A stretch of 64,000 nucleotides of DNA, taken from IMG/VR virus record IMGVR_UViG_3300030060_007200. One strand, 5' to 3'. The translations under genes and the position numbers were made by a program. Position 1 is the stretch's first letter, and every line of letters begins with the position of its first letter. A model generated the notes under the pieces. It had not been told where the DNA came from, made no database searches, and saw nothing but the letters and a program-made list of their open reading frames with translations. This document shows positions 1 to 57,008 of this stretch, in pieces. The DNA comes from a virus.

Positions 1-1824
1 CTCTTCTTTTTTAGAATACTTTTTTTGTATCTTTATTTTTGTATCATTTAATTGTGCGTATACAGATTCGTATTCTAGCAAATTATCCTCTTCATCTATT
101 AGCTGTTGAGAATAATCTGTTTTTCCAAAATTCTTAAGAAGTATTTGTACCTCTTTAATCTCTTCGTTTGCAAGTTGATATAGCTCTTCAAATACTGTAA
201 TATCTAGAAATTGAGATAGTAAATCCTTTTTCTCTACCTGAGACTGGTCTATAAAACCTGTATTGTTATTTTGTACTGACATTGATGTTAAAACAAAGTC
301 ATTATATAATCCAAGATAGCCTCTTATATTTTTGTCTGTTTGAGTTCTTTGCTCGCCATTAAGTGATATTGGATTATCGTCCTCACCTATCATCCAAAAA
401 TCTACATCTACACGAACATGACCAGACTTCTCTTTTTTACCTCTACGTTCAATAAAATAATCTACACCGTCTATTTCAAAATTAAGTTTTGAATAAAAAT
501 TAGATTTCTTATTATTTAATACATCTGATGCAGATTTTGTTCTAGAGCATTTGTGAAATACATTAAACATTATAGCATCGAGTATTGCAGATTTACCTGC
601 GTGGTTAGGTGCAAATATACCTATAACATCTCTAAGTTTTGAAAAGTCTATTACGTTATCTTCTCCATAACTAAACATATTTGAGAACTCGAATTTTTTA
701 GGCAGCCACCTAACACCTCTAGAAACTTCTATTGTAGAAAGACTTTTATTTAATTCAGTGTTTATGTTTTTTATACGTCTTATTGTTTCATCGTCGGCAG
801 GATGGTTTGCACCTATATATTCTTCTAATAATTCATTTTGATATTGTACATCTCTAATATCTCTTGTTATTGACCTTGTTGTTTTATTTTGAGCATTTAG
901 CTTATCGTTTTTTATTATTACAATATCAGTTGTTCTACATTTACTTTTTATTTCTTTTATTATAGTTTTTAATTGTGCCTGAGTTGTATTTTCTGTTCTT
1001 ATTCTAACTCTAGGATATTTTGGTATATTGTCTATATTAGGCAGCTTTCCATTTTTTACATCTATTGTATAAAATCCATGTACGTTTTCAAAGTCTACAA
1101 AATCTGCTTTTCTGGTATCAACATTCCAAATTGCACATCCGTGATTCTCAAAAGACTCACCAAAATTTTGTTGTATAAGAGAACCTACTTGTAATATAGT
1201 TTTATCTTTATTGTAAAACTGTCTTTTATGTATATCACCTAACATGACCATATCATATCCATCAAACATAGATATTTTAAGGTCGTCGCTTTCAACTTTA
1301 TACCCTGTATCTGTATATGACATATCAAGTGCTCCGTGAAAAAGTGCAACCTTTGTTTCAGCATCGAATGAACTTGCCTTGATAAATGTTTGAGGGTCGT
1401 CAAATATACTAAACACAACAAAGTGAGTGCCTGCTATTTCGTGTACAGCAGAATCCTTAAGATAGTGTAATTGTGGATGCGCTAAAGATTCTATCATAGG
1501 AGACAAAGAGTCTAGTCTAGATGAGTTATTGAGATTCGCATCGTGATTTCCTGTAATTACAATAGTATGTCGCCTATCTGCTAAATTCTTAAGGAATTCT
1601 GTTGTAAGCTTTATTAGCTCAGGTGATATATCAGTTTTGCTATGTACAATATCACCTCCTACATATACTATCGAGTTTTTAGGCAGCCTATCTACCTGTT
1701 TATATAATTGCCTAAATACTTTTCTATATTCTTTATGTCGCTGATAATTTCTTATATGTATATCCGCAACGTGTAATACTTTTTCTAGCTTTTCAAACCC
1801 TACATCAATTTTATTAAAGTCCAA
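1..1824 (-). CDS. Mre11/SbcD metallophosphoesterase fused to Rad50/SbcC ATPase (gp47-gp46-like); runs off the window start
   Basis: Not in the ORF track; translated by hand from TTG at 1824. Motifs HVADIH, GGDIVH, ITGNHD, FHGA, GDIH and VGSLIQQNFGE, then Walker A GIFAPNHAGKS (about 590-625), a Q-loop (SMSVQ) and coiled coil, with no stop noticed. Confidence 0.9.
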   Translation of the reverse strand, partial: MDFNKIDVGFEKLEKVLHVADIHIRNYQRHKEYRKVFRQLYKQVDRLPKNSIVYVGGDIVHSKTDISPELIKLTTEFLKNLADRRHTIVITGNHDANLNNSSRLDSLSPMIESLAHPQLHYLKDSAVHEIAGTHFVVFSIFDDPQTFIKASSFDAETKVALFHGALDMSYTDTGYKVESDDLKISMFDGYDMVMLGDIHKRQFYNKDKTILQVGSLIQQNFGESFENHGCAIWNVDTRKADFVDFENVHGFYTIDVKNGKLPNIDNIPKYPRVRIRTENTTQAQLKTIIKEIKSKCRTTDIVIIKNDKLNAQNKTTRSITRDIRDVQYQNELLEEYIGANHPADDETIRRIKNINTELNKSLSTIEVSRGVRWLPKKFEFSNMFSYGEDNVIDFSKLRDVIGIFAPNHAGKSAILDAIMFNVFHKCSRTKSASDVLNNKKSNFYSKLNFEIDGVDYFIERRGKKEKSGHVRVDVDFWMIGEDDNPISLNGEQRTQTDKNIRGYLGLYNDFVLTSMSVQNNNTGFIDQSQVEKKDLLSQFLDITVFEELYQLANEEIKEVQILLKNFGKTDYSQQLIDEEDNLLEYESVYAQLNDTKIKIQKKYSKKEE

Positions 1825-2725
1825 ATTTCATCTCCAACAGCTTTGCAAAATCTACGGTTTTAGAATTAGATATTAAATCATTTATTTTTTTATGACCTAA
1901 TGTACTTGGGTCTTCACCGTCATTCATTTCTATTATTCTTACATCTATATTTTCTGATTGTAAATATTCACATAGTTTCACTGCTTCATTTTTTGCATCA
2001 TTATCTAAAACTATGTTTACTCTTTTTACATTTCTTTCTTTTATTTTCATTTTCAAAGATTTTGGCATAAACTTACCAAATATAGGAATTGAGTTTTCTC
2101 CTATAGCTATTGCATCAAAAACACCTTCGCAAATATTTATATCCTCATTCCAGTTTACCAAAAGCTCAAAACCTATTACGTCTTTAGAAGTTTTAGGATT
2201 TTTATGCTTAAAATCTGTATCGTAATAAGACCTTCCTACAAAATAATTTAGTATACCTCTATCATCATAACTAGGTATTATTACCATACCGCTATATTCT
2301 CCAGATTCACAATATCCTATATTATATCTTAACACATCTGTTTTTGTTATACCTCTTGACCTTAAATATTTTGCTGCATTTCTAAATTCAGGACTGTTTC
2401 TGTTTCCTGATATAAGAGGTATAAAACTCATAGGTAAAGAAACATGCTCCTCAACCTTTGATTTATCTGTATTGTGTCTAACGCCTGTTAATGTATTCAG
2501 CTCTTGTATTTTTCCTAATGCGCCAACCTTTCTAAATATACGTTCAGCACCTATACCTTTAATACCGCAAACCCAACAGTGCCATTTCTGAGTAATTATA
2601 TTTATTACTAATTTCTTTTTATGGTGATTGCAATAAGGACATGAAAACGTTGCCTCATTACCACTTGTCATGGATTTACCTAATACATTCTCAAACAAAT
2701 TGAGTAAACGTCTACTTTTATTCAT
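1814..2725 (-). CDS. DNA primase (zinc-binding domain + TOPRIM)
   Basis: CPYC..HCWVC zinc finger, YLRSRGI, YFVGR, ICEGVFDA and LDND motifs. Confidence 0.93.
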   Translation of the reverse strand: MNKSRRLLNLFENVLGKSMTSGNEATFSCPYCNHHKKKLVINIITQKWHCWVCGIKGIGAERIFRKVGALGKIQELNTLTGVRHNTDKSKVEEHVSLPMSFIPLISGNRNSPEFRNAAKYLRSRGITKTDVLRYNIGYCESGEYSGMVIIPSYDDRGILNYFVGRSYYDTDFKHKNPKTSKDVIGFELLVNWNEDINICEGVFDAIAIGENSIPIFGKFMPKSLKMKIKERNVKRVNIVLDNDAKNEAVKLCEYLQSENIDVRIIEMNDGEDPSTLGHKKINDLISNSKTVDFAKLLEMKFGL

Positions 2726-2726
2726 G

Positions 2727-2758
2727 TATATAATATAACAAATATTTGTGAATTATTA
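2727..2758 (-). promoter_or_regulatory. Early/middle-type promoter upstream of primase
   Basis: TTTAATAATTCACAAATATTTGTTATATTA matches the repeated promoter family (TC...TTTGTTATATTA). Confidence 0.55.
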
Positions 2759-3196
2759 AAACTTTATTTCGTTTATTTTTCTTTCTGTTTCGTCTGTAAA
2801 CTTGACTCTTGCAAACCGTCTTGGTCCTATACAGTCATTATAAAAATCATCTTTTACAGAAACATGATATCTATGGTGTATATTTTCTTCGAGATAATTA
2901 ACCTGGCCTTTTGTTTCTCCCATTATAAGTATTTCAAATTGAAAAGCCTTTTTTCCTAATTTTTTTATATCATTATTTAATACCTTAGAAGAACCAGTAT
3001 ATTCTCTCCAGTTAGAATCTTTTCTTACAACCTTGCGTCGTTTTTTACCAGCTACCTTTACACGCCTTGTTGTACCAAAGTATTTTCGGCCAATATATTT
3101 TTTACCTGACTTTATGTTGGTAATTAGATAAACAAAACCGAAATAATTATCTGGTGCTTCTTCTAGTATTTTTCCTTTATATAACCAATGACTCAT
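2756..3196 (-). CDS. GIY-YIG endonuclease (T4 EndoII/Seg-like)
   Basis: GFVYLITN..KKYIGRK, YTGSS, conserved E and FYN. Confidence 0.88.
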   Translation of the reverse strand: MSHWLYKGKILEEAPDNYFGFVYLITNIKSGKKYIGRKYFGTTRRVKVAGKKRRKVVRKDSNWREYTGSSKVLNNDIKKLGKKAFQFEILIMGETKGQVNYLEENIHHRYHVSVKDDFYNDCIGPRRFARVKFTDETERKINEIKF

Positions 3197-3199
3197 ATT

Positions 3200-5122
3200 T
3201 TATGTATCGAATCCTACAATAAAAGTTGTATCATAATCTAATGATTTTTTTATAGCTCGTGATAATTTACCTACAGCTAATAACCTAGCATTGTCGTCAT
3301 ACAAACCTATTGTTGTCACATAAGGTGACCAGGCAGAGCCTGTTGTAAATGGGTGTATTGTTCCTAGCTTTGGGTCATCGATTATTGTTGGATTCATTGT
3401 AAAACCGTATTCTCTTTCTTTTATATGACAAGCATATTCATGTTCTATTATTGTATGTGTATTTTTGAATGATAAAGTACATTCTGAAAATATATTATCT
3501 ACTGCAGTTGTATAGTTTGTTGACGGAGCTGTAAATGTTAATATTCCGTGATTGTAAAATACATTACCTACTTTATTTTCCATAGTTGGATATGTAGCTG
3601 TCCAACCAGCCTCTGCAGCTGTTATATTTTTACTAAACATCATTACATTGCTGACAGCACCTTTGAAGTGATTTGTAAATTCTGTTGCAGGTCTAAATTT
3701 TCTAGAATATCTTGTTCTTTTATCTCTAAATCTAAATTTTGTACCTGCATCTCTAGCTCTTGCTCCTACAATGATATCGCTGTCATTATATAGTGAGCCG
3801 GAAGGTATACTTCCGTGAGACTGTAATACACCATTAACATACAAATACGCAAAGCTTCCAGATTTTGTTAGCAGCACGCTATCAAATGCGTTACTCGTAC
3901 TAACAACTGTAGGACTATTAAGATATAGTGTATCAACACCATCGCTTATTGCAGCTTGATATGTACCTGCATTACCTATATTAGCACTACCTGAATTTTG
4001 TATTGCGTGTTTATTGACATATCTTATAGAAAAAGGAAACGAACCTTTTTTATGCGGGTCGTGTTTTGATATTATATGGTTGTGATGATATTGGTCTGTA
4101 AAATCTGCAGATTGAGATTCCTGAAAACGAGAAGAAGATACTCGTACATAAACTGCAAAATCATCAGCCTCAGTATTTCTTCTTGTTGGTCTTGTACGAA
4201 AATCAAATTGATGCCTATGTTTTATTCTCATCATACTTTGGTTTTCTATGTTTATTCGAGACTTAGTTGTTGCAGGTTTTATACCATCTAATTCAATAAA
4301 TGTTTGCTCAGCAACTGAGCTTGTTTGAGGTCTTATATTGTGAGCCTCTACACGATTTGGATATCTCGATCTTTCAAAAAATCTTGTTTTGTTTTTAAGG
4401 TTGAAATATTCCTTTCCATTATCTCTATAATAACTACTACTTGCTAATGCGTTTATACTATGAGCGCTTAATTTACTTCCAGCTTGGTTGTACATATCTA
4501 CAAAGTTAAGAGCTACCAAACTTGTTGTTACAAAACTTATTGATTCTGTAGGATTACCATAAAGCTGTACACTATTATCTATAAGATTTCCAAATCCATC
4601 ATCTGTTATTGTTGTACTACCTGACTGTATTTTTACAGAACCTTTTTTAATTGATTCGCCAAACATTTTTTGTGGTACTGATATTATCTTTGCAGATTTT
4701 CCAAGTGTTCTTATTTCTTTTTCATATCCACTATTATCTAATGTCCAACATGGGTCATCAGGATTTGTATAGTACATACCTTGTAACGAATCGTGTAAAG
4801 CTCTTTTGTAAAAGTGGTTTGTTGTTACTTCATGAGGAGAGGTTGTTAAAGCATTTAGATAAGAGCCGTATTCAGTAGGAGTAAAGTCACTTCCATCATA
4901 TTGTGTCTCATAAGAAAAAACACTTAATGAAACTATTCTTATATCTTGTGGTACATTAAAAGTAGAGCCTGTTATCCACGGGTCGAAAACTCTAAACTGC
5001 TCGTAACCTTTTTCAAAATAACTACCAGTATAATTTGTTAAACGTACTGTATATTCCTTGTTGGCCTCGAACGGAGTAATTTGTATTTCGTCCTTTCTAA
5101 ATTTCCTAAATATGCCGGACAT
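3200..5122 (-). CDS. Virion structural protein with LamG/ConA-like domain
   Basis: LamG-like YLYVNG...IIVGAR...FKGAVSNVMMF. C-terminal YVTTIGLYDDNARLLAVGKLSRA is shared with the next gene. Confidence 0.7.
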   Translation of the reverse strand: MSGIFRKFRKDEIQITPFEANKEYTVRLTNYTGSYFEKGYEQFRVFDPWITGSTFNVPQDIRIVSLSVFSYETQYDGSDFTPTEYGSYLNALTTSPHEVTTNHFYKRALHDSLQGMYYTNPDDPCWTLDNSGYEKEIRTLGKSAKIISVPQKMFGESIKKGSVKIQSGSTTITDDGFGNLIDNSVQLYGNPTESISFVTTSLVALNFVDMYNQAGSKLSAHSINALASSSYYRDNGKEYFNLKNKTRFFERSRYPNRVEAHNIRPQTSSVAEQTFIELDGIKPATTKSRINIENQSMMRIKHRHQFDFRTRPTRRNTEADDFAVYVRVSSSRFQESQSADFTDQYHHNHIISKHDPHKKGSFPFSIRYVNKHAIQNSGSANIGNAGTYQAAISDGVDTLYLNSPTVVSTSNAFDSVLLTKSGSFAYLYVNGVLQSHGSIPSGSLYNDSDIIVGARARDAGTKFRFRDKRTRYSRKFRPATEFTNHFKGAVSNVMMFSKNITAAEAGWTATYPTMENKVGNVFYNHGILTFTAPSTNYTTAVDNIFSECTLSFKNTHTIIEHEYACHIKEREYGFTMNPTIIDDPKLGTIHPFTTGSAWSPYVTTIGLYDDNARLLAVGKLSRAIKKSLDYDTTFIVGFDT

Positions 5123-24791: not shown

Positions 24792-24800
24792 ATATAAATA

Positions 24801-25028
24801 TCACTTCTCTACCTGTTTTTTAGGTTTTCTTCTATAAGTTCTGCGATTATTTTTAGGTGCAGATTTCCTAGAATTTTTTCCAAGTGATTTGATTTCGTTT
24901 TTTAGTAATTCATTTACTAGAATTTTATCTTCTAATAATTGTTTAACTGTAACGAATCTTTTGTTTAGATATAGTACTGTTCCTAATATACCTAAACCAA
25001 ATGCTAGTATTACTGATAATGTTATCAT
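24801..25028 (-). CDS. Small membrane protein with basic tail
   Basis: N-terminal TM segment and K/R-rich C-terminus. Confidence 0.6.
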   Translation of the reverse strand: MITLSVILAFGLGILGTVLYLNKRFVTVKQLLEDKILVNELLKNEIKSLGKNSRKSAPKNNRRTYRRKPKKQVEK

Positions 25029-43951: not shown

Positions 43952-44809
43952 CTATTCTCCTTTTGAATTTTTTACATATTCTACTTTTATCTTTATTTTT
44001 GGCTCGTAACTATCAGGTGTTCTATCATCGATACCAAAATATTCTGATTTATCTTTATCCATTCTTAATGTAAATTCTAAATCTGTCACATTCATCATTA
44101 GCTGGCCTGTGGTAGAAAGAATATCTTTTTCTGTAGGTCCTTTGACCATATCTACATTTCTATATGGATTGTTTCTCATATTCTTTGCATGATATGCAGA
44201 CAAGCCATTTAATACATCGCTAGGTGTTTTTACCTTTGAAAGCATATCTTGTGCGTATTTCCATCTTAATTCTGATGATTTTTTATTAAGTCCTGAGGTA
44301 TATCCAGAATCATCATAATCATATCCGTGATTTGTTCTCACATGATTATGACCTCTATTTAATTTTTTAATAACTGGCTCGTGTTCAGATGTCATTTCTA
44401 TTGAATATGTATGTTTTGGTGTCGCTACAAATGTATGTCCTTTAACACCAACATCTCTTTTGTCGTCACCTTTGAAATTAACTATTGATAATATTGATTC
44501 AGACGCTTTTCTAAACATAAGAGCTCGTCTTATTTTTTTACCGTCTTCTGATGGCTTGCCTTTTTTCTTTGCTAACTTCTTTTCTTTTTCATCTGCATTT
44601 ACCATAAGAGCAGAATTGATAACAGCAGTACCATAATTATTCATACCTTCTGACCAATCAGTATCTTCGTCAACAATATAAACCATTTCTACATCATTGA
44701 TTAGCTCTCTTACAACTTTAACTCTTGCTGTATAAGAACGGTCTCTATTTTTTGCTAAAATAATTTTATTATTAACAACAGTATGTGCTATTGTACATTC
44801 GTTTATCAT
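43952..44809 (-). CDS. Ntn hydrolase (Cys nucleophile; C45/C59/TANGO2-like) with MINE leader
   Basis: MINE|CTIA..LAKNRDR..EGMNNYG..VRTNH; AAGGAG RBS before the ATG at 44809. Confidence 0.82.
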   Translation of the reverse strand: MINECTIAHTVVNNKIILAKNRDRSYTARVKVVRELINDVEMVYIVDEDTDWSEGMNNYGTAVINSALMVNADEKEKKLAKKKGKPSEDGKKIRRALMFRKASESILSIVNFKGDDKRDVGVKGHTFVATPKHTYSIEMTSEHEPVIKKLNRGHNHVRTNHGYDYDDSGYTSGLNKKSSELRWKYAQDMLSKVKTPSDVLNGLSAYHAKNMRNNPYRNVDMVKGPTEKDILSTTGQLMMNVTDLEFTLRMDKDKSEYFGIDDRTPDSYEPKIKIKVEYVKNSKGE

Positions 44810-44840
44810 TTGCTCTCCTTTATATATAAATATCAAACTA

Positions 44841-45368
44841 CTATTTAACCAGTGAAGTTACAATAGTTGTTTCAGGGTATTTCTTTTTAAGAGCGTCGAC
44901 TGCCTTTATATTTTTAGGTGAATCGTCCATAAAATATATTGGGTCATAACCTTTTTGAATTTCTTTTTCTATATAATCTGCTTTTTTCTGTGGGTCTCCA
45001 CTACCTAATGTAATTACATAAGGCTGAATTCCTATTGATTTGAAGAAAGAGTTAATTGGTGCGCCAAGTCTTCTCGCTGTAAGTATCGTTACTTTTCTAC
45101 CACCTTTCTTTAATTGTTTTTTCAATAAATCTGCATTCTTTTTTATTAACCTGGGATTTCTTATTGGCCTATCAAAATCTCTAAAATCATATGACTGTCC
45201 TTTTTTAAGACCTTTATGCACAGCAAACTGTGCCGCATCCAATGTATCTACAACACTTCCTTCATCGTCAACAACATATACCCATGAATCTGATTTTACT
45301 AATGTATCATCAAAATCAAAAATGCTTAACATTCTTTTTTCTAATAACAGGTCTTTTAATTTAATCAT
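44841..45368 (-). CDS. HAD-superfamily phosphatase (Swiss-Army-knife RNA-repair type) with MIKLKDLLLE leader
   Basis: IFDFDDTL, ILTAR, K and FMDDSPKN. Confidence 0.8.
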   Translation of the reverse strand: MIKLKDLLLEKRMLSIFDFDDTLVKSDSWVYVVDDEGSVVDTLDAAQFAVHKGLKKGQSYDFRDFDRPIRNPRLIKKNADLLKKQLKKGGRKVTILTARRLGAPINSFFKSIGIQPYVITLGSGDPQKKADYIEKEIQKGYDPIYFMDDSPKNIKAVDALKKKYPETTIVTSLVK

Positions 45369-45847
45369 AGATACTTTTTCCAATTCTTTTCAGCATTTCT
45401 AGCTTGTTTTTCCATAGGATTATTTGTATATCCTTTTTCTCTACCTTGCTTTATTTTCTTTGGGTCTTGTGTTGCGTGTGTATATTCATGAAGCATAGCA
45501 CGTATTACATCTTCCTCAGAATTAAGAGCAGCCTTATATAAATATATAGTATTGTCTTCATGTACAAATTCAGCATGCTCGTTTTCACCGCCTGGATAAT
45601 CATCAATTCCACTGTATCTTGCATAAACATTGCTGTGTATTTCGATTTTAGGTGTACCTTTTCTTGCTCTACCTAAATTTTTAACAACCTGAGGATATAT
45701 TCTATTAACGATTTTTAATATATCGTTTTTTGACATTCCTTCTGATAGTATTTCTTTTAATTTTATCATTTTATACGGACAGTTTTTACAACCACAGTTA
45801 CAACAGAATCCTCGATTTAATAAAAATTCTCTTGATAGAGGCTTCAT
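45365..45847 (-). CDS. Zincin-like HExxH protein; N-terminal DUF5522-like Cys cluster and internal MIKLKEILSE leader
   Basis: RGFCCNCGCKNCPY, LHEYTHATQ and NPMEKQA. Confidence 0.72.
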   Translation of the reverse strand: MKPLSREFLLNRGFCCNCGCKNCPYKMIKLKEILSEGMSKNDILKIVNRIYPQVVKNLGRARKGTPKIEIHSNVYARYSGIDDYPGGENEHAEFVHEDNTIYLYKAALNSEEDVIRAMLHEYTHATQDPKKIKQGREKGYTNNPMEKQARNAEKNWKKYL

Positions 45848-46040: not shown

Positions 46041-46604
46041 CTACCATTTTCTACATGACCAGTAACGAGCTTTCGTTTTAGGTCCAGGATTATCACAGTT
46101 GTGTCTTGCTCTAAATGATTTACGTCTTTCAGGATTGTTCTTTTTGATTCTGTTCTCTGCACCTTTTGCACCAAAACTAACTTTCTTTACCTTGTCTCCA
46201 TCTTTAACGTATACCTTAAATTTACTATTACCATCACCTTGCATAGGTTTGTTGAGTTTAACTTTACGACCTTGATATTCAGCTTCTGAGATGCGTTTAA
46301 CAGCTTCAACTAACCATTCTGTAAAGCAACCGATGTCTTCCTTTTTAACAAAAAGTTCATTTTCTGTAATATTATTTATTACCTCATCTAGCTTTCCTTC
46401 GAAAAAATACATATCTCTTTGCATCCAACCATCAAGGTTTTCCCATTTACCATCAACCAAATCGTAATCAATATCATCTGGGTCTTTTACTACAGAAAGC
46501 ATTGCCTGCTCTCTTTCGTCTTCGCTGGCTTTTTTCCACCATTTTTTGGTAACTTTTACACCTTTACCAACTCTTCGTTCATTAAGAATTTGTTTTAGCT
46601 TCAT
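46041..46604 (-). CDS. Putative head-internal protein with MKLKQILNE leader
   Basis: C-terminal basic domain KKVSFG..RRKSFRARHNC..KARYWSCRKW; several x-x-E sites. Confidence 0.7.
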   Translation of the reverse strand: MKLKQILNERRVGKGVKVTKKWWKKASEDEREQAMLSVVKDPDDIDYDLVDGKWENLDGWMQRDMYFFEGKLDEVINNITENELFVKKEDIGCFTEWLVEAVKRISEAEYQGRKVKLNKPMQGDGNSKFKVYVKDGDKVKKVSFGAKGAENRIKKNNPERRKSFRARHNCDNPGPKTKARYWSCRKW

Positions 46605-47577
46605 AATATCTCCATAATTCTTTTCCTAGTTTTTTACCAAATAAAGAATCTGATAAAAAATGTTGTTTTGCAATATTTCTACTATATGATATTTCCTCTG
46701 CAATTTTCAAAAAACGCATTTTATGCTCAGGATAAATATCACCTAACACATAAGCTAATAAATAACCTTGCGCTGAATGACCACTTGGATATGATGGTGT
46801 CATTGCACTATCGAGAGGTTGGTCATGAAATTTAAGACCATACGATTTAGCAACTTGTACAGGTCTAGGTCTATTGTAATGATATTTCAATGATTTAATT
46901 ATCCATCTTGTTTGTTTCATAACATTTTTCATTAAGTCATAAGAAACATTTATATTTAAGTCTTGAGTTCTTTCAATGAAATATTTTTTTATTTTGTCTG
47001 CCTTTAATACAAATTCAGGATTAGGTTTTAATTTATCGATTTGCATTAACTCTTTTCTTGTTTCTATTGAATCGTTAGGTGGAAATGGAAGATTGTGAAA
47101 GTTACTGATAGGAAATTCTTTCCATGCACCTTTTTTATCTGACATGTGACTGATGGCCTTTTCATCAGGTTCGCCAAATTTTATGTCATTTCTTCCTTCA
47201 GTTACCTTATCAGGAAGCTCCTCATAATCTTTCTTAGTCATTTTACTATCCATTTTCTTTGCAGCTTTTGGGTCTGTCGCAAACATAAATCTTTGTTGTG
47301 CCTTGCTAGCAAATTTTTCAAAAAGAAATGAATGTACACCACCTCCTGTACCAATACTAGACCATTTGTCATGTTTTATTTTTATTGAAGGATATAATTT
47401 TTTTATTGATTTAATTACATCCTTTGGATTTACCTTATATCCATAAAACACACTCATACCATTTTTATTCAGTTTCGTAACTTTAGGTCTTGTTCTTCCT
47501 GAATAATCAATAGATAATTGATATGAAATATCTTTTTTATTTATCTTTTCAAATAATATGTTTTGTAATTTAATCAT
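46582..47577 (-). CDS. PAP2/vanadium-haloperoxidase-family phosphatase with MIKLQNILFE leader
   Basis: KYHYNRPRP, PSYPSGHS and SR..A..HF.SD. Confidence 0.85.
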   Translation of the reverse strand: MIKLQNILFEKINKKDISYQLSIDYSGRTRPKVTKLNKNGMSVFYGYKVNPKDVIKSIKKLYPSIKIKHDKWSSIGTGGGVHSFLFEKFASKAQQRFMFATDPKAAKKMDSKMTKKDYEELPDKVTEGRNDIKFGEPDEKAISHMSDKKGAWKEFPISNFHNLPFPPNDSIETRKELMQIDKLKPNPEFVLKADKIKKYFIERTQDLNINVSYDLMKNVMKQTRWIIKSLKYHYNRPRPVQVAKSYGLKFHDQPLDSAMTPSYPSGHSAQGYLLAYVLGDIYPEHKMRFLKIAEEISYSRNIAKQHFLSDSLFGKKLGKELWRYYEAKTNS

Positions 47578-47915
47578 CGGTTTAAGTATTGTCGCCATTT
47601 ACTATAATCAGGTGCCATATTAGTTCCACCAACATTAACATTAGCTTTTAATTTATCTTGAGCATCTAAGTAAGTTGTACGTCCACTTGTGATTTGAAAA
47701 GCAAATTTCTTTTTAAGGTTAACAGCAAATAGACCACCAGGCAGACCAATTAAGAATGTACCTTTAGGAACTTTGGCATAACTTTTACCAGCCATTTGTG
47801 TTCCTACACCAGGAATACCACCAGCTGGACGAGTATTATATTTTACCATTGCATCTTTTAATATGATAGCTTGGAAGTTAATTCCTTCTCTTAATATGTC
47901 TTTTAATCTTGCCAT
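47574..47915 (-). CDS. Hypothetical protein with MARLKDILRE leader
   Basis: Leader motif; intact ORF. Confidence 0.65.
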   Translation of the reverse strand: MARLKDILREGINFQAIILKDAMVKYNTRPAGGIPGVGTQMAGKSYAKVPKGTFLIGLPGGLFAVNLKKKFAFQITSGRTTYLDAQDKLKANVNVGGTNMAPDYSKWRQYLNR

Positions 47916-51145: not shown

Positions 51146-51382
51146 CTATTTTGTCATTCTTTGTGTCCAATCTTTTAGCTTATCCTGCAGTTGTTTTTTA
51201 ATTCCAGGTCCTCTAAAAGTTCCGCCTATCTTCATTGCGTCTTTGATAAAGCTATTATATTCTTTGTTCCATTTTACTACCAAAGTTTTTTCAAAATCAT
51301 TTAATAATTTTGCTCGCTCTTTGTCTTCGCCTTTTGAGATTGTTCCGTCAGGATTAGCCTCAATAATTTTTTTTAATTTCAT
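51146..51382 (-). CDS. Small protein with MKLKKIIE leader
   Basis: Leader motif. Confidence 0.6.
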   Translation of the reverse strand: MKLKKIIEANPDGTISKGEDKERAKLLNDFEKTLVVKWNKEYNSFIKDAMKIGGTFRGPGIKKQLQDKLKDWTQRMTK

Positions 51383-54300
51383 TGTTTTATCACCCTTGTT
51401 GTAAATCTTTTGTTATTATATATAAGTATCAAGTTATATACACCATTACTGTAATTTGATAAATCTATTCTTTTAGATTTTTCTCTTGTCATTAACTTAC
51501 CTTGTAAATTGTATATTTCAACCTCCACATCCAATCTTGTATCTATATTTAATACATCGCCTGTTGGATTTGGATAAACCATAATTCCCATAGATGTTAT
51601 ATCTTCAACATTTGTTGGCCAACCTAATTGGCAATAATCATACATTGATATACATGATGCATCCCAATCTGTAGTACAGCAATAGTCGTCTACTGATATC
51701 ACCCAAGCATAACATCCATCATTTAACCAATAAGGTATACCAGGCCCTCCATAACATCCTGCATCGTATAAACATGCTGTAGAATCAGTTACATTTGCCA
51801 GTGGATTGTAATTATATGCCGCTACATCTGTACAACCTGAAACAATTTCGATACATGAATTATCATCAAAGCATGCTGCCGGGTCATAATTCAATGCTGT
51901 AGGGTCAGTACAACCTGAAATATAACAACATGTATTATCAGATGTGTTTGCCAATGGATTGTAGTTTAATGCTACTGGGTCGTTACATCCGTATACAAAA
52001 GGTTCACATGAACCGTTATCAACATTAGCCAATGGATTATAGTTCCACATTGTCGAATCTGTACAACCATAAATTGGTAAAATACAGCTAAAATCATCTG
52101 TGTTTGCAAGTGGGTCGTAATTTAATGCTGATGGGTCTGTACAACCGTAAACAATAGATTGACAAGTGCCATTATCTGTATTAGCTAATGGGTCATAATT
52201 AAATGCCGTTGAATCCATACATCCATATATAAACGGTATACAATTTCCTGATGATGTATTTGCTGTTGGGTCGTAGTTCCACATTGTATTATCCATACAT
52301 CCAATTATTACAGGAATACAACTACCATCATTTGTATTTGCTGTTACATCATAATTAAACATTGTTGGGTCTGTACAACCGTAAATATAAGGTATGCAAG
52401 AACCATCATCTGTGTTAGCTGTTAAACTATAATTATACATTGTTGAATCAGTACAGCCGTATACAATACCTACACATGTTCCGTCATCATCTGTAGCAGC
52501 AGGATTAAAGTTTATTGAAAGTGGATTTGTACAACCTGCAATTTCCAATTCATCGCAAACTCCATCACCATCTGTATCTAATATACAAGCTCCATAACAA
52601 TCATAATATTGAACTGGATATGTACAACCTCCATTATCTACATTTGCAATTGCGTCGTAATTACAAGCTGTTACATCTGTACAGCCTAAATAAATACAAG
52701 AACCATCATCTACATTTGCTAATGGATTGTAATTATATCCTATAGAATCCATACAGCCATTCACAATTGGAATACATGAATTATCATCTACTGTTGCTAA
52801 TGAATCATAATTAAGAGCAAATTCATTTGTACAGCCATATATAATAGGAATACAATTGCCATCATCAGTATTTGCCAGTGGGTCGTAATTTGCTGCTGTT
52901 GAATCCATACAGCCTAATATTACTGGTACACAAGTATTACCACAAAATGGAATACCTACATATTTTGTCCAGAAAGGAGATTCAAAAGATTGTAAAGCTC
53001 CTTGACCGTTATTAGCAAAAGGATTTTGTCCTTCATGCATTAAAACAAAGCCATCTGCATTTGTTAATTTGAATGAGTTATGCCAAGTTTGAAATTGAAC
53101 CTCTTGCGGTGGTTGTTGTGGTCCACCTACTTCAAAATAAAATACTTCAACTGGAATTCCTGGGTCTAAAATAATATTCCATGAACCACCATAATTACCA
53201 GGTCCCATTGTATATGTACCAATTATCAATCCGTTTTGATAAACTCCTATATAAGAATTACCCCAACCATCTCCTGCAGCATCGAATATTTCTAATAAAT
53301 AATTACAGTCAGGTATTAAATCCATCATTGTTGCTGCTGGGTCATAATTAAATGCAGCTGGGTCTGTACAGCCGTATGTATGTAATGTTGCACATGAACT
53401 GTCATCTACTGTCGCAGCAGGATTAAATTCTACGTAATCATCATCTGTACATCCTGGTATTGGAGGTATTATAGGACAAGGTGTTGCCATTTGCTGGCCT
53501 GAATACAATACGGAACCAAAACCTGGATTGTCCATATACCAAATTGTATCACCATCACAGTCGTATATAACAATAGCTCCATCCATCGAACCACCTGAAG
53601 TAGAGCCTGCCATACCGTCACCAAAATCATCGTTAACAATAAGTTCGAATCCTGCAGTTTGGTCTACACAGAAAGTATAAGTGTATGTTTGTCCGATATC
53701 GTTAAAATCATATGTTCCTACTGTAGCTTCATCAATAACTCCTAAACTATTCATTATCCACGATGTTTCTCCTGGCCAATTATCTAGTGTAATTTCCATT
53801 GTTATTTGATATTGAGTTGCAGTATCACAAGATGTACCTGCACAACTTCCATCATCATATGTAGCCCATGGGTTATATGATATTTGAGTAGGGTCTGTAC
53901 AACCTGATATACAAGAAGTAGGTGTGTAAGCTATTGTATCTGATAAACTACCATCTAAAAATTCTACCCAACCATAATGTTCTACTGACCAGTTAGGTGG
54001 CATCTGACCGTTACCTGCGTAAACTGCAAAGTCTAATGAGTTAGGACCAAGTCCATACTGAAAAGGACCTGCGCCATTTTCATTGGAATACCAGAATTTT
54101 ACAGGTGTACAATTTGTATTGCTATCAAGAGTCCAGTTAAAAAGTACAAGTGTTTGTCCACCTGGTAAGCAATTTTGTGATGCTGTAGAAGTTAAAAAAC
54201 CCTGACATGGGTCAAATTGACAAATGCTAGGGTCAGAAATATATGCTGTTGAGTCATAATTTAATGCTGAAGGGTCTGTACAACCTACTGTTGGTGGAGC

Positions 54301-54678
54301 ACAAGGAGCAGTTGTTAATGTTTCTACCAAACTATCTCCAAAATTACCTGCAGCATACATTAAAGTATCTTGGCATGAATTGCTAATTAAAAACCATCCA
54401 TCAGTCCCACCCCATTGAGATGCAGCTAATCCATCACCATAACTATCGTATATACTTGCAATAAAAGTACCTTGTATAGGAATGATAGTATCATATAATG
54501 TATTAGGTAACATACCACTATCATTTTGCAAAATAATTGGTGAGCCTCCTGGAGGTGTGATATCCCAACTTGTTTCAGAAGGATAATTGTCTGTTAATAA
54601 TTGTACGTGAATCCAACTGTCAATTTGTGAAAATACAACCGTTGGTATAACCATTAGTAAAAATACTAGTTTTTTCAT
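51379..54678 (-). CDS. T9SS type A sorting-domain protein with about 18 GC(T/M)D Cys repeats
   Basis: Signal VFS|Q; repeats GCTDxxAxNYDPxAxxDDGSC; C-terminal VYPNP..YNLQGK..IDLSNYSNGVY..RVIKQ. Confidence 0.9.
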   Translation of the reverse strand: MKKLVFLLMVIPTVVFSQIDSWIHVQLLTDNYPSETSWDITPPGGSPIILQNDSGMLPNTLYDTIIPIQGTFIASIYDSYGDGLAASQWGGTDGWFLISNSCQDTLMYAAGNFGDSLVETLTTAPCAPPTVGCTDPSALNYDSTAYISDPSICQFDPCQGFLTSTASQNCLPGGQTLVLFNWTLDSNTNCTPVKFWYSNENGAGPFQYGLGPNSLDFAVYAGNGQMPPNWSVEHYGWVEFLDGSLSDTIAYTPTSCISGCTDPTQISYNPWATYDDGSCAGTSCDTATQYQITMEITLDNWPGETSWIMNSLGVIDEATVGTYDFNDIGQTYTYTFCVDQTAGFELIVNDDFGDGMAGSTSGGSMDGAIVIYDCDGDTIWYMDNPGFGSVLYSGQQMATPCPIIPPIPGCTDDDYVEFNPAATVDDSSCATLHTYGCTDPAAFNYDPAATMMDLIPDCNYLLEIFDAAGDGWGNSYIGVYQNGLIIGTYTMGPGNYGGSWNIILDPGIPVEVFYFEVGGPQQPPQEVQFQTWHNSFKLTNADGFVLMHEGQNPFANNGQGALQSFESPFWTKYVGIPFCGNTCVPVILGCMDSTAANYDPLANTDDGNCIPIIYGCTNEFALNYDSLATVDDNSCIPIVNGCMDSIGYNYNPLANVDDGSCIYLGCTDVTACNYDAIANVDNGGCTYPVQYYDCYGACILDTDGDGVCDELEIAGCTNPLSINFNPAATDDDGTCVGIVYGCTDSTMYNYSLTANTDDGSCIPYIYGCTDPTMFNYDVTANTNDGSCIPVIIGCMDNTMWNYDPTANTSSGNCIPFIYGCMDSTAFNYDPLANTDNGTCQSIVYGCTDPSALNYDPLANTDDFSCILPIYGCTDSTMWNYNPLANVDNGSCEPFVYGCNDPVALNYNPLANTSDNTCCYISGCTDPTALNYDPAACFDDNSCIEIVSGCTDVAAYNYNPLANVTDSTACLYDAGCYGGPGIPYWLNDGCYAWVISVDDYCCTTDWDASCISMYDYCQLGWPTNVEDITSMGIMVYPNPTGDVLNIDTRLDVEVEIYNLQGKLMTREKSKRIDLSNYSNGVYNLILIYNNKRFTTRVIKQ

Positions 54679-56958: not shown

Positions 56959-57008
56959 CGGGATTTCTCCTTTTGTAACGTTAGTACTATTATGATATAA
57001 ATATCAAA

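Follow-up and report, generated by a model that had tools for sequence, protein, structure and literature searches.

A viral cysteine Ntn hydrolase with a predicted prohead-protease site directly before its nucleophile

Ntn hydrolases are the textbook case of self-activating enzymes. In the known cysteine enzymes of this kind, the residue preceding the nucleophile is Gly in isopenicillin-N acyltransferase (IAT) and penicillin V acylase (PVA), Ile or Phe in acid ceramidase and NAAA, and Met in bile-salt hydrolase (BSH). The leader to be removed can be very short, as in the PVA precursor of B. sphaericus (2iwm), where only Met-Leu-Gly stands before Cys1. Removal of this leader is autocatalytic, and its last residue is Gly.

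A different kind of leader removal is found in the head proteins of phage T4. The cut made there by gp21 removes a sorting tag and is not known to create a catalytic residue. The T4 proteins IPI, IPII, IPIII, and Alt carry a short capsid-targeting sequence that ends in I/L-x-E and is removed by gp21 (PMC5694885, PMC3012670). The preferred site of this protease is I/LxE, with the cut falling after Glu, and one of its targets in vivo is a cytosolic protein (PMC12991175). Cleavage after Glu is common to every S77-type protease studied, and the length of capsid-targeting sequences is 10–20 residues (PMC5694885). In the activation loops of CBASS CD-NTases, an exposed I/L-x-E is cut by a T4-type prohead protease outside the capsid, and this cut switches the enzyme on (Hobbs and Kranzusch, 2026, preprint, PMC12991175).

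The protein analyzed here, P0001, is encoded in a 64,000-nucleotide stretch of DNA from a marine T4-like phage, the whole of which is referred to as the window. In the arrangement proposed here, P0001 joins an Ntn hydrolase zymogen to a T4-style protease-clipped leader, a combination not found described in the literature searched; the same search found no report of an Ntn hydrolase in a phage virion. As in T4, the lineage has an S77 protease, a Gp23 capsid protein, and a portal, and one type of leader is present on unrelated adjacent genes. Unlike in T4, the proposed cut would itself make the nucleophile, the leader in the window has only four residues, and no packaging has been shown. The resemblance to the B. 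sphaericus PVA lies in the very short leader that must go, whereas the P0001 tripeptide matches the site of a trans-acting protease and changes with the virus lineage. In the CD-NTase case a host sensor exploits the phage protease; here the enzyme is the phage's own, and the cut would create an active-site residue.

The P0001 gene and the predicted fold of its product

The DNA of the window is rich in A and T (33% G+C); P0001 and every other long gene are encoded on the minus strand (Table 1). The ATG of P0001 (44809-44807) and its stop codon (43954-43952) delimit a protein that begins with M-I-N-E-C-T-I-A. An earlier note on this DNA had proposed a start supported by a ribosome-binding site and giving MINE|CTIA, and this start was confirmed, with AAGGAGAG lying 3 nt upstream of the ATG at 44809. 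The ORF-finder listing had given a TTG start at 44836. This codon has no ribosome-binding site, and the frame starting from it would run through the GGAG; for these reasons, the ATG was taken as the start.

The gene had also been described as lying under a late-type motif, and this description held only in part. The promoter-like word TTGATAYTTATAT is indeed recurrent. Its exact copies at 44824-44836, 51420-51432, and 56995-57007 (minus strand) are each located just upstream of a gene, on the coding strand, and six matches with no more than one mismatch were found in the window against 1.45 expected. One more exact copy (L339:15085-15097) was found in a related head-module locus, ahead of a gene that follows closely on those for the capsid and PhoH-like proteins. 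Judged by this recurrence, the word at 44824-44836 is a real repeated promoter-like word, and only its late timing remains an inference. A one-mismatch copy is also present at 24792-24804.

Table 1. Positions of P0001, its sequence elements, and leader-bearing genes in the window
Feature	Position	Strand	Details
Cysteine Ntn hydrolase P0001, CDS with stop codon	43952..44809	-	285 aa; ORF and translation, model pLDDT 90, Ntn fold Z ~20
Four-codon leader Met-Ile-Asn-Glu, P4-P1 of the predicted prohead-protease site (I-x-E, cut after Glu4)	44798..44809	-	
Codon of Cys5, predicted N-terminal nucleophile once cleaved	44795..44797	-	Family-invariant; superposes on residue 1 of known mature chains
Codons of the invariant K20-N21-R22-D23-R24 motif	44738..44752	-	Columns invariant in all three N-terminal types
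Shine-Dalgarno-like AAGGAGAG (contains GGAG)	44813..44820	-	3 nt 5' of the P0001 ATG
Promoter-like word TTGATATTTATAT, 13 nt	44824..44836	-	Common to two other window genes
HAD/DUF2608-like protein, upstream neighbor	44841..45368	-	Leader MIKLKDLLLE
HExxH-type protein, weak DUF3920 match	45365..45769	-	Leader MIKLKEILSE
DUF5754 protein	46041..46604	-	Leader MKLKQILNE
PAP2-family protein	46582..47577	-	Leader MIKLQNILFE
113-aa protein	47574..47915	-	Leader MARLKDILRE
Protein with leader MKLKKIIE	51146-51382		

No match to P0001 was found in Pfam (E up to 1) or in PHROGs, and a PDB sequence search with it returned nothing usable. The NCBIfam model NF040521 (C45_proenzyme) gave only a weak match (E 2e-5, 24 bits, cut-off 85), in which residues 4-216 correspond to profile positions 89-292, and a precomputed PF03417 hit was found for one of 120 homologues. 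At the sequence level, P0001 is a distant relative of the Pfam PF03417 AAT / MEROPS C45 family that falls below the curated cut-off and is thus not a member. The N-terminal chain of the C45 proenzymes (about 90-100 residues, retained after Gly|Cys cleavage) is absent from P0001, in which the Cys comes after only four residues and Glu occupies P1. A canonical C45 alpha-chain was also sought in the N-terminal extensions of 93-144 residues that some homologues have. The C45 model does not cover these extensions, which therefore look like unrelated fused modules.

The fold was assigned from an AlphaFold2 model built with 88 homologues as input (pLDDT 90, pTM 0.89). A Foldseek search with this model gave a probability of 1.00 and a best E of 3.7e-10, to IAT; the other matches included choloylglycine hydrolases, penicillin V acylases, a C69 dipeptidase, and NAAA. 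The best-aligned structure in VIA-align was CV2077 (3gvz; Z 20.8, rmsd 3.1, 224 aligned residues), accompanied by the NAAA beta chains (Z 19.9-20.3), the IAT precursor (Z 19.9), acid ceramidase (Z 19.0), and the PVA precursor 2iwm (Z 16.6). By both Foldseek and VIA-align, the model has the four-layer alpha-beta-beta-alpha fold.

The structure alignments place Cys5 on Cys103 of IAT, Cys126 of NAAA, Cys143 of acid ceramidase, Cys2 of BSH, and Cys1 of PVA. Because the alignments with the mature chains begin at model residue 5, Cys5 is considered the structural equivalent of the N-terminal nucleophile. In those structures its counterpart is the first residue of the mature catalytic chain, and Cys5 would itself be N-terminal only if the MINE leader were gone. 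Identity as an Ntn hydrolase, a guess in the earlier note, is thus supported by the model and the fold searches alike, with Cys5 on the known nucleophiles. Both Cys5 and the K20-N21-R22-D23-R24 motif are invariant in approximately 370 sequences. The latter matches the [G/A]-[R/K]-N-x-D motif that in NAAA, ceramidase, and BSH holds the free amino group and the oxyanion; the role of this motif in P0001 is inferred from family resemblance.

In total, P0001 shares its fold with NAAA and acid ceramidase (C89), IAT (C45), BSH and PVA (C59), and CV2077 (Z 16-21 over 208-238 aligned residues). It also shares with the known cysteine enzymes a Cys at the position where their mature chains begin, a [K/R]-N-x-D sequence about 15 residues later, and a similar size of the catalytic chain. 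It differs from them in its low identity (only 10-18%), in the lack of an alpha-subunit, and in the Glu that stands before the Cys within I/L-x-E. On the strength of the model, P0001 is a cysteine Ntn hydrolase without an alpha-subunit, outside C45 by the curated thresholds, and it belongs to the NAAA / acid ceramidase / C45 / bile-salt-hydrolase superfamily of cysteine Ntn amidohydrolases.

Residues preceding the cysteine in the family

Homologues were collected by a word-indexed search (171, mostly from marine metagenomes), a profile search of 1.8 billion representatives (611), and three IMG/VR scans, which found the family in several hundred viral contigs. For 240 loci, the residues before the Cys were taken straight from the DNA, in addition to those read in called proteins, and the set was reduced to 370 non-redundant sequences. 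The family is almost wholly viral.

Glu at P1 was found in 266 of the 370 sequences, which form the T4-like branch. The P3 residue in these relatives is Leu (141), Ile (106), Val (14), Met (3), or Thr (2). The position P2 is variable (Asn in 46%), and the residues from P4 outward vary freely. An alignment of the homologues, proposed in the earlier note as a check for [ILV]-x-E before the Cys, thus gave a positive answer for the T4-like branch in the form [ILVM]-x-E, with Glu at P1 in 266/266 and an aliphatic residue at P3 in 264/266. The I2-N3-E4 sequence directly before Cys5 of P0001 matches the I/L-x-E rule of the gp21-processed head proteins. Taken alone, this single site is unremarkable, since [LIVM]-x-E occurs at approximately 1.3% of the positions in the window proteins (217 in 16,399 residues); the signal is its invariance across the 266 homologues.

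The leader ahead of the Cys in the I/L-x-E type comprises from 4 to about 24 residues or, alternatively, 90-340 residues of other sequence. Among the called proteins of this type, 39 have a leader of exactly four residues and none has a leader of one to three. This shortest form is always Met plus the tripeptide, and the sole other short form in the family is Met directly before the Cys (M|C). The four-residue leader arose more than once, each time as exactly M plus I-x-E. Such repeated retention, as read from the sequences, shows selection on the tripeptide, which is compatible with a protease cut and with self-cleavage alike.

Two other N-terminal types were found in the family. The sequence [K/R]-x-[A/S/G] precedes the Cys in 71 of the 370 sequences (P3 is K/R in 70/71, P1 is A/S/G in 69/71), and M|C is present in 33. 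On a FastTree tree built from the Ntn domain alone, with the leader left out, the three N-terminal states need only 10 changes. The [K/R]-x-[A/S/G] type is essentially one sister clade of 69 sequences. The M|C type forms one clade of 24 sequences, mostly from giant viruses and including contigs named giant-virus MAGs, together with at least six scattered single sequences (a few phage branches) nested in the I/L-x-E clades. The catalytic motifs are identical across all three types.

Since other branches have [KR]-x-[ASG] or M|C, neither the Glu nor the aliphatic residue is needed by the fold, and the enzyme, as far as these alignments can tell, folds and presumably works without them. The K/R-x-A and M|C clades differ by the kind of virus; therefore, the tripeptide follows the virus lineage, changing as a unit, and not the fold. 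Homologues lacking the Glu had been named beforehand as grounds for refuting a cut by the head protease. Those found favor the idea instead of refuting it, being restricted to the [KR]-x-[ASG] clade, for which neither S77 nor Gp23 was detected (see below), and to the M|C giant-virus clade and a few phage branches.

The K/R-x-A clade (members P0136-P0260; loci L168, L169, L172, L174, L175, L208, L214, and L230) is found in contigs of 27-288 kb, several of them >200 kb. Its Ntn module often heads, or sits inside, proteins of 500-2800 residues; between the modules of these long chains lie similar K-x-A joints together with RVAxRYL-like stretches that recur. This arrangement resembles a second leader-and-joint system, distinct from the first, the protease of which was not identified. 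The M|C form is present in the GVMAG-named contigs L088 (IMG/VR, 96.6 kb, two tandem copies), L089-L091, L098, L106, and L119.

Head protease and leader-bearing genes in the lineage

The Pfam domain Peptidase_S77 was found in all eight I/L-x-E-type IMG/VR contigs that are at least 90% complete by CheckV. It was also found in Chryseobacterium phage MA9V-2, the Ntn homologue of which is 41% identical. The homologues in phages MA9V-1 and MA9V-2 (MA9V1_182 and MA9V2_239) have a leader that ends with FLNE|C. In one related genome, the S77 gene is located approximately 1.7 kb from the Ntn gene. For the lineage of the window, S77 was found on a relative and not on the window's own record; extension from the first complete gene of the window reached only a contig of 2.7 kb. 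This relative, contig G019 (IMG/VR, reached via the first gene of the window), is 90% nucleotide-identical to window positions 1-3823 and, about 19 kb further on, encodes a 210-aa S77 protease (113.8 bits), a T4-type portal, and a Gp23 capsid protein.

The Gp23 capsid protein of G019 carries I-S-E62|S, close in position to the T4 gp23 cut site, L-T-E65|A. A scaffold-like protein of the same lineage starts with MSKDLLKE. The sequence [LIV]-N-E was found at the likely processing sites of the G019-lineage head proteins (for example, SLNE|S, RVNE|S, and PINE|S) and of the C-terminus of the S77 protease itself. In the window proteins at large, the share of Asn at P2 is only 6%.

No S77 match was found in contig G001 (IMG/VR, 96%-identical gene copy, ~90% DNA identity, 31% complete) or in two more incomplete I/L-x-E contigs; all three are fragments. 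Searches of five K/R-x-A-type contigs (1.1 Mb in total, one of them closed by direct terminal repeats, 13-79% complete by CheckV) gave no match to S77, S78/HK97-type, or Gp23 proteins. As a positive control, the Gp23 search found this protein in 5/5 I/L-x-E genomes. The M|C phage contigs (2-32% complete) are too fragmentary for the protease type to be judged. The link between the site type and the protease rests on few, phylogenetically clustered genomes.

The S77 domain of MA9V-2 (L001/L003, record positions 167084-167422) is located inside an open frame of 1213 residues, in contrast to the proteases of 200-270 aa in the other relatives. For phage MA9V-1, a 4,044-bp gene for a 'prohead core protein serine protease' is listed, and the protein data in that paper are limited to an SDS-PAGE gel (PMC10537231).

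Relatives of P0001 at 57-83% identity begin with MIKLKDII..KINE|C, MIKLKDILFKN..PLRE|C, or similar sequences; in most relatives, the I/L-x-E site closes an MIKLKDIL-type leader of 13-24 residues. The window copy, with its leader of four residues, does not meet the capsid-targeting length of about 10-20 residues. Six other window genes, five of them adjacent upstream and one 6 kb away, start with the same type of tag, ending in aliphatic-x-Glu. The tag was also found within fused proteins. In L252, a relative with 88% identity in the Ntn hydrolase, a single 433-aa protein comprises the PAP2 and HAD modules, with KLKEIMKE as the internal joint (L252:8666-9967), and a 441-aa protein strings together DUF3008- and DUF5754-type modules with an internal MIKFKDMIQE (L252:7347-8672). 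A similar joint links the Ntn domain with a HAD module in another relative. Because the tag doubles as an internal joint in these fusions, it seems to act at the peptide level and to mark module boundaries. Such behavior, inferred from gene organization, is that of a targeting-and-cutting signal and not of a self-cleavage signal.

The ORF at 45365-45847 (minus strand) opens with 26 Cys-rich residues (CCNCGCKNC, Pfam DUF5522, 28 bits), which the MIKLKEILSE leader of the HExxH protein follows at once. Either a mini-module has been fused ahead of the leader, or translation actually starts at the internal ATG (45769), for which there is no clear ribosome-binding site.

Proposed exposure of the nucleophile and possible function

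We consider it moderately probable that Cys5 is exposed by the head protease and not by self-cleavage; no cut has been measured. P0001 would be made as an inactive precursor, in which MINE blocks the amino group of Cys5, and the T4 gp21-type (Peptidase S77) prohead protease of the phage would remove this block by cutting Glu4|Cys5. Since activation would depend on the head protease, the enzyme would be active only late, once this protease is active. The leaders of 13-24 residues in the tagged relatives resemble the T4 capsid-targeting sequence, and these copies are therefore probably loaded into the prohead, where they would be clipped and from which they would be delivered with the DNA; this packaging, like the cut, is an inference. 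With four residues, compared with 10-20 in the T4 sequences, the leader of the window copy is unlikely to direct it into the prohead. This copy appears to have lost the tag and kept only the cutting site; its clipping may take place in the cytoplasm, giving an enzyme that is activated late. If S77 acts only inside proheads, the window copy would not meet the protease, which counts against a cut in trans; both a head-protease cut outside the capsid and self-cleavage remain possible for this copy. The earlier note had proposed a zymogen activated by the prohead protease during maturation. The conservation of the site and the presence of S77 in the lineage, known by comparison only, speak for the activation, and its placement inside the prohead is less sure for a copy with a four-residue leader.

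Classical autoproteolysis, the main rival, has to be weighed against this and is, in our estimate, unlikely without being negligible. The precursor would cut its own Glu4-Cys5 bond via an N-to-S acyl shift, with the Glu as general base and the P3 residue packed in a pocket, and the head protease would at most trim longer leaders upstream. Self-cleavage is the norm in Ntn hydrolases, including the removal of short leaders, and an acidic P1 residue can take part in it, as does Asp151 of glycosylasparaginase. Self-processing precursors are among the nearest folds (IAT 2x1c, NAAA 6dxw, acid ceramidase 5u81, PVA 2iwm), the model giving the weak sequence match is itself named 'C45 family autoproteolytic', and the four-residue leaders, which arose more than once, keep I-x-E despite the loss of the targeting tag. 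A residue required for self-cleavage is, however, hard to reconcile with a tripeptide that was swapped as a unit for [KR]-x-[ASG] in one clade and, on at least seven occasions, lost altogether (M|C), with the catalytic motifs remaining invariant. The same L-x-E also ends the leaders of unrelated neighbors that are unable to self-cleave and joins fused modules, and the preference for Asn at P2 mirrors the likely sites of the head proteins. Very improbable, in our view, is that the leader is retained or removed by a host peptidase, with P0001 functioning without a free N-terminal Cys (by binding, as a structural protein, or by another mechanism) and I-x-E kept for translation initiation or docking. 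There are no processing data to contradict it, and the codons ATG ATA AAC GAA, which directly follow the ribosome-binding site, could conceivably be under selection as RNA. The motif is nevertheless kept as a peptide with varied codon context, also at 90-340 residues from the start in fusions; the invariance of Cys5 and K-N-R-D-R in approximately 370 sequences fits catalysis; and the M|C relatives would expose the Cys by Met removal, which suggests that a free Cys matters.

If the head protease does expose Cys5, activation by another protease would be a new control of Ntn hydrolases, with a site rewritten as the gene moves between virus lineages, and it would be, to our knowledge, the first case of head-protease clipping creating the active site of a cargo enzyme. 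A widespread enzyme, present in hundreds of viral contigs, would also be added to the little-known proteins that large phages may carry into cells. A still wider reading is distinctly doubtful and is offered as speculation. The viral Ntn amidase family would have given up self-cleavage, leaving its N-terminus to be made by the capsid-maturation protease of each virus (at I/L-x-E in T4-like phages, at K/R-x-A in a second group of very large phages) or, in giant viruses, by plain Met removal. The enzyme would then be a protease-gated cargo or timer, and its tagged copies would be injected together with the DNA, their target being an amide-linked lipid or peptide of the Bacteroidota envelope.

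The catalysis of P0001 on an amide substrate is itself inferred. The enzymes with the nearest folds act on the amide bonds of lipids (NAAA, ceramidase), bile salts, penicillins, and dipeptides, and a gene for a PAP2-type phosphatase stands near the P0001 gene. A reasonable candidate for the substrate, though no more than a guess, is an N-acyl lipid of the Bacteroidota envelope. A Bacteroidota host is probable in view of the relatives among Chryseobacterium phages and a type IX secretion sorting domain on a neighboring phage protein. The latter protein (1099 aa, window positions 51379-54678, minus strand) ends in this domain (Por_Secre_tail, E 4.9e-11), which points to a possible use of the host secretion system.
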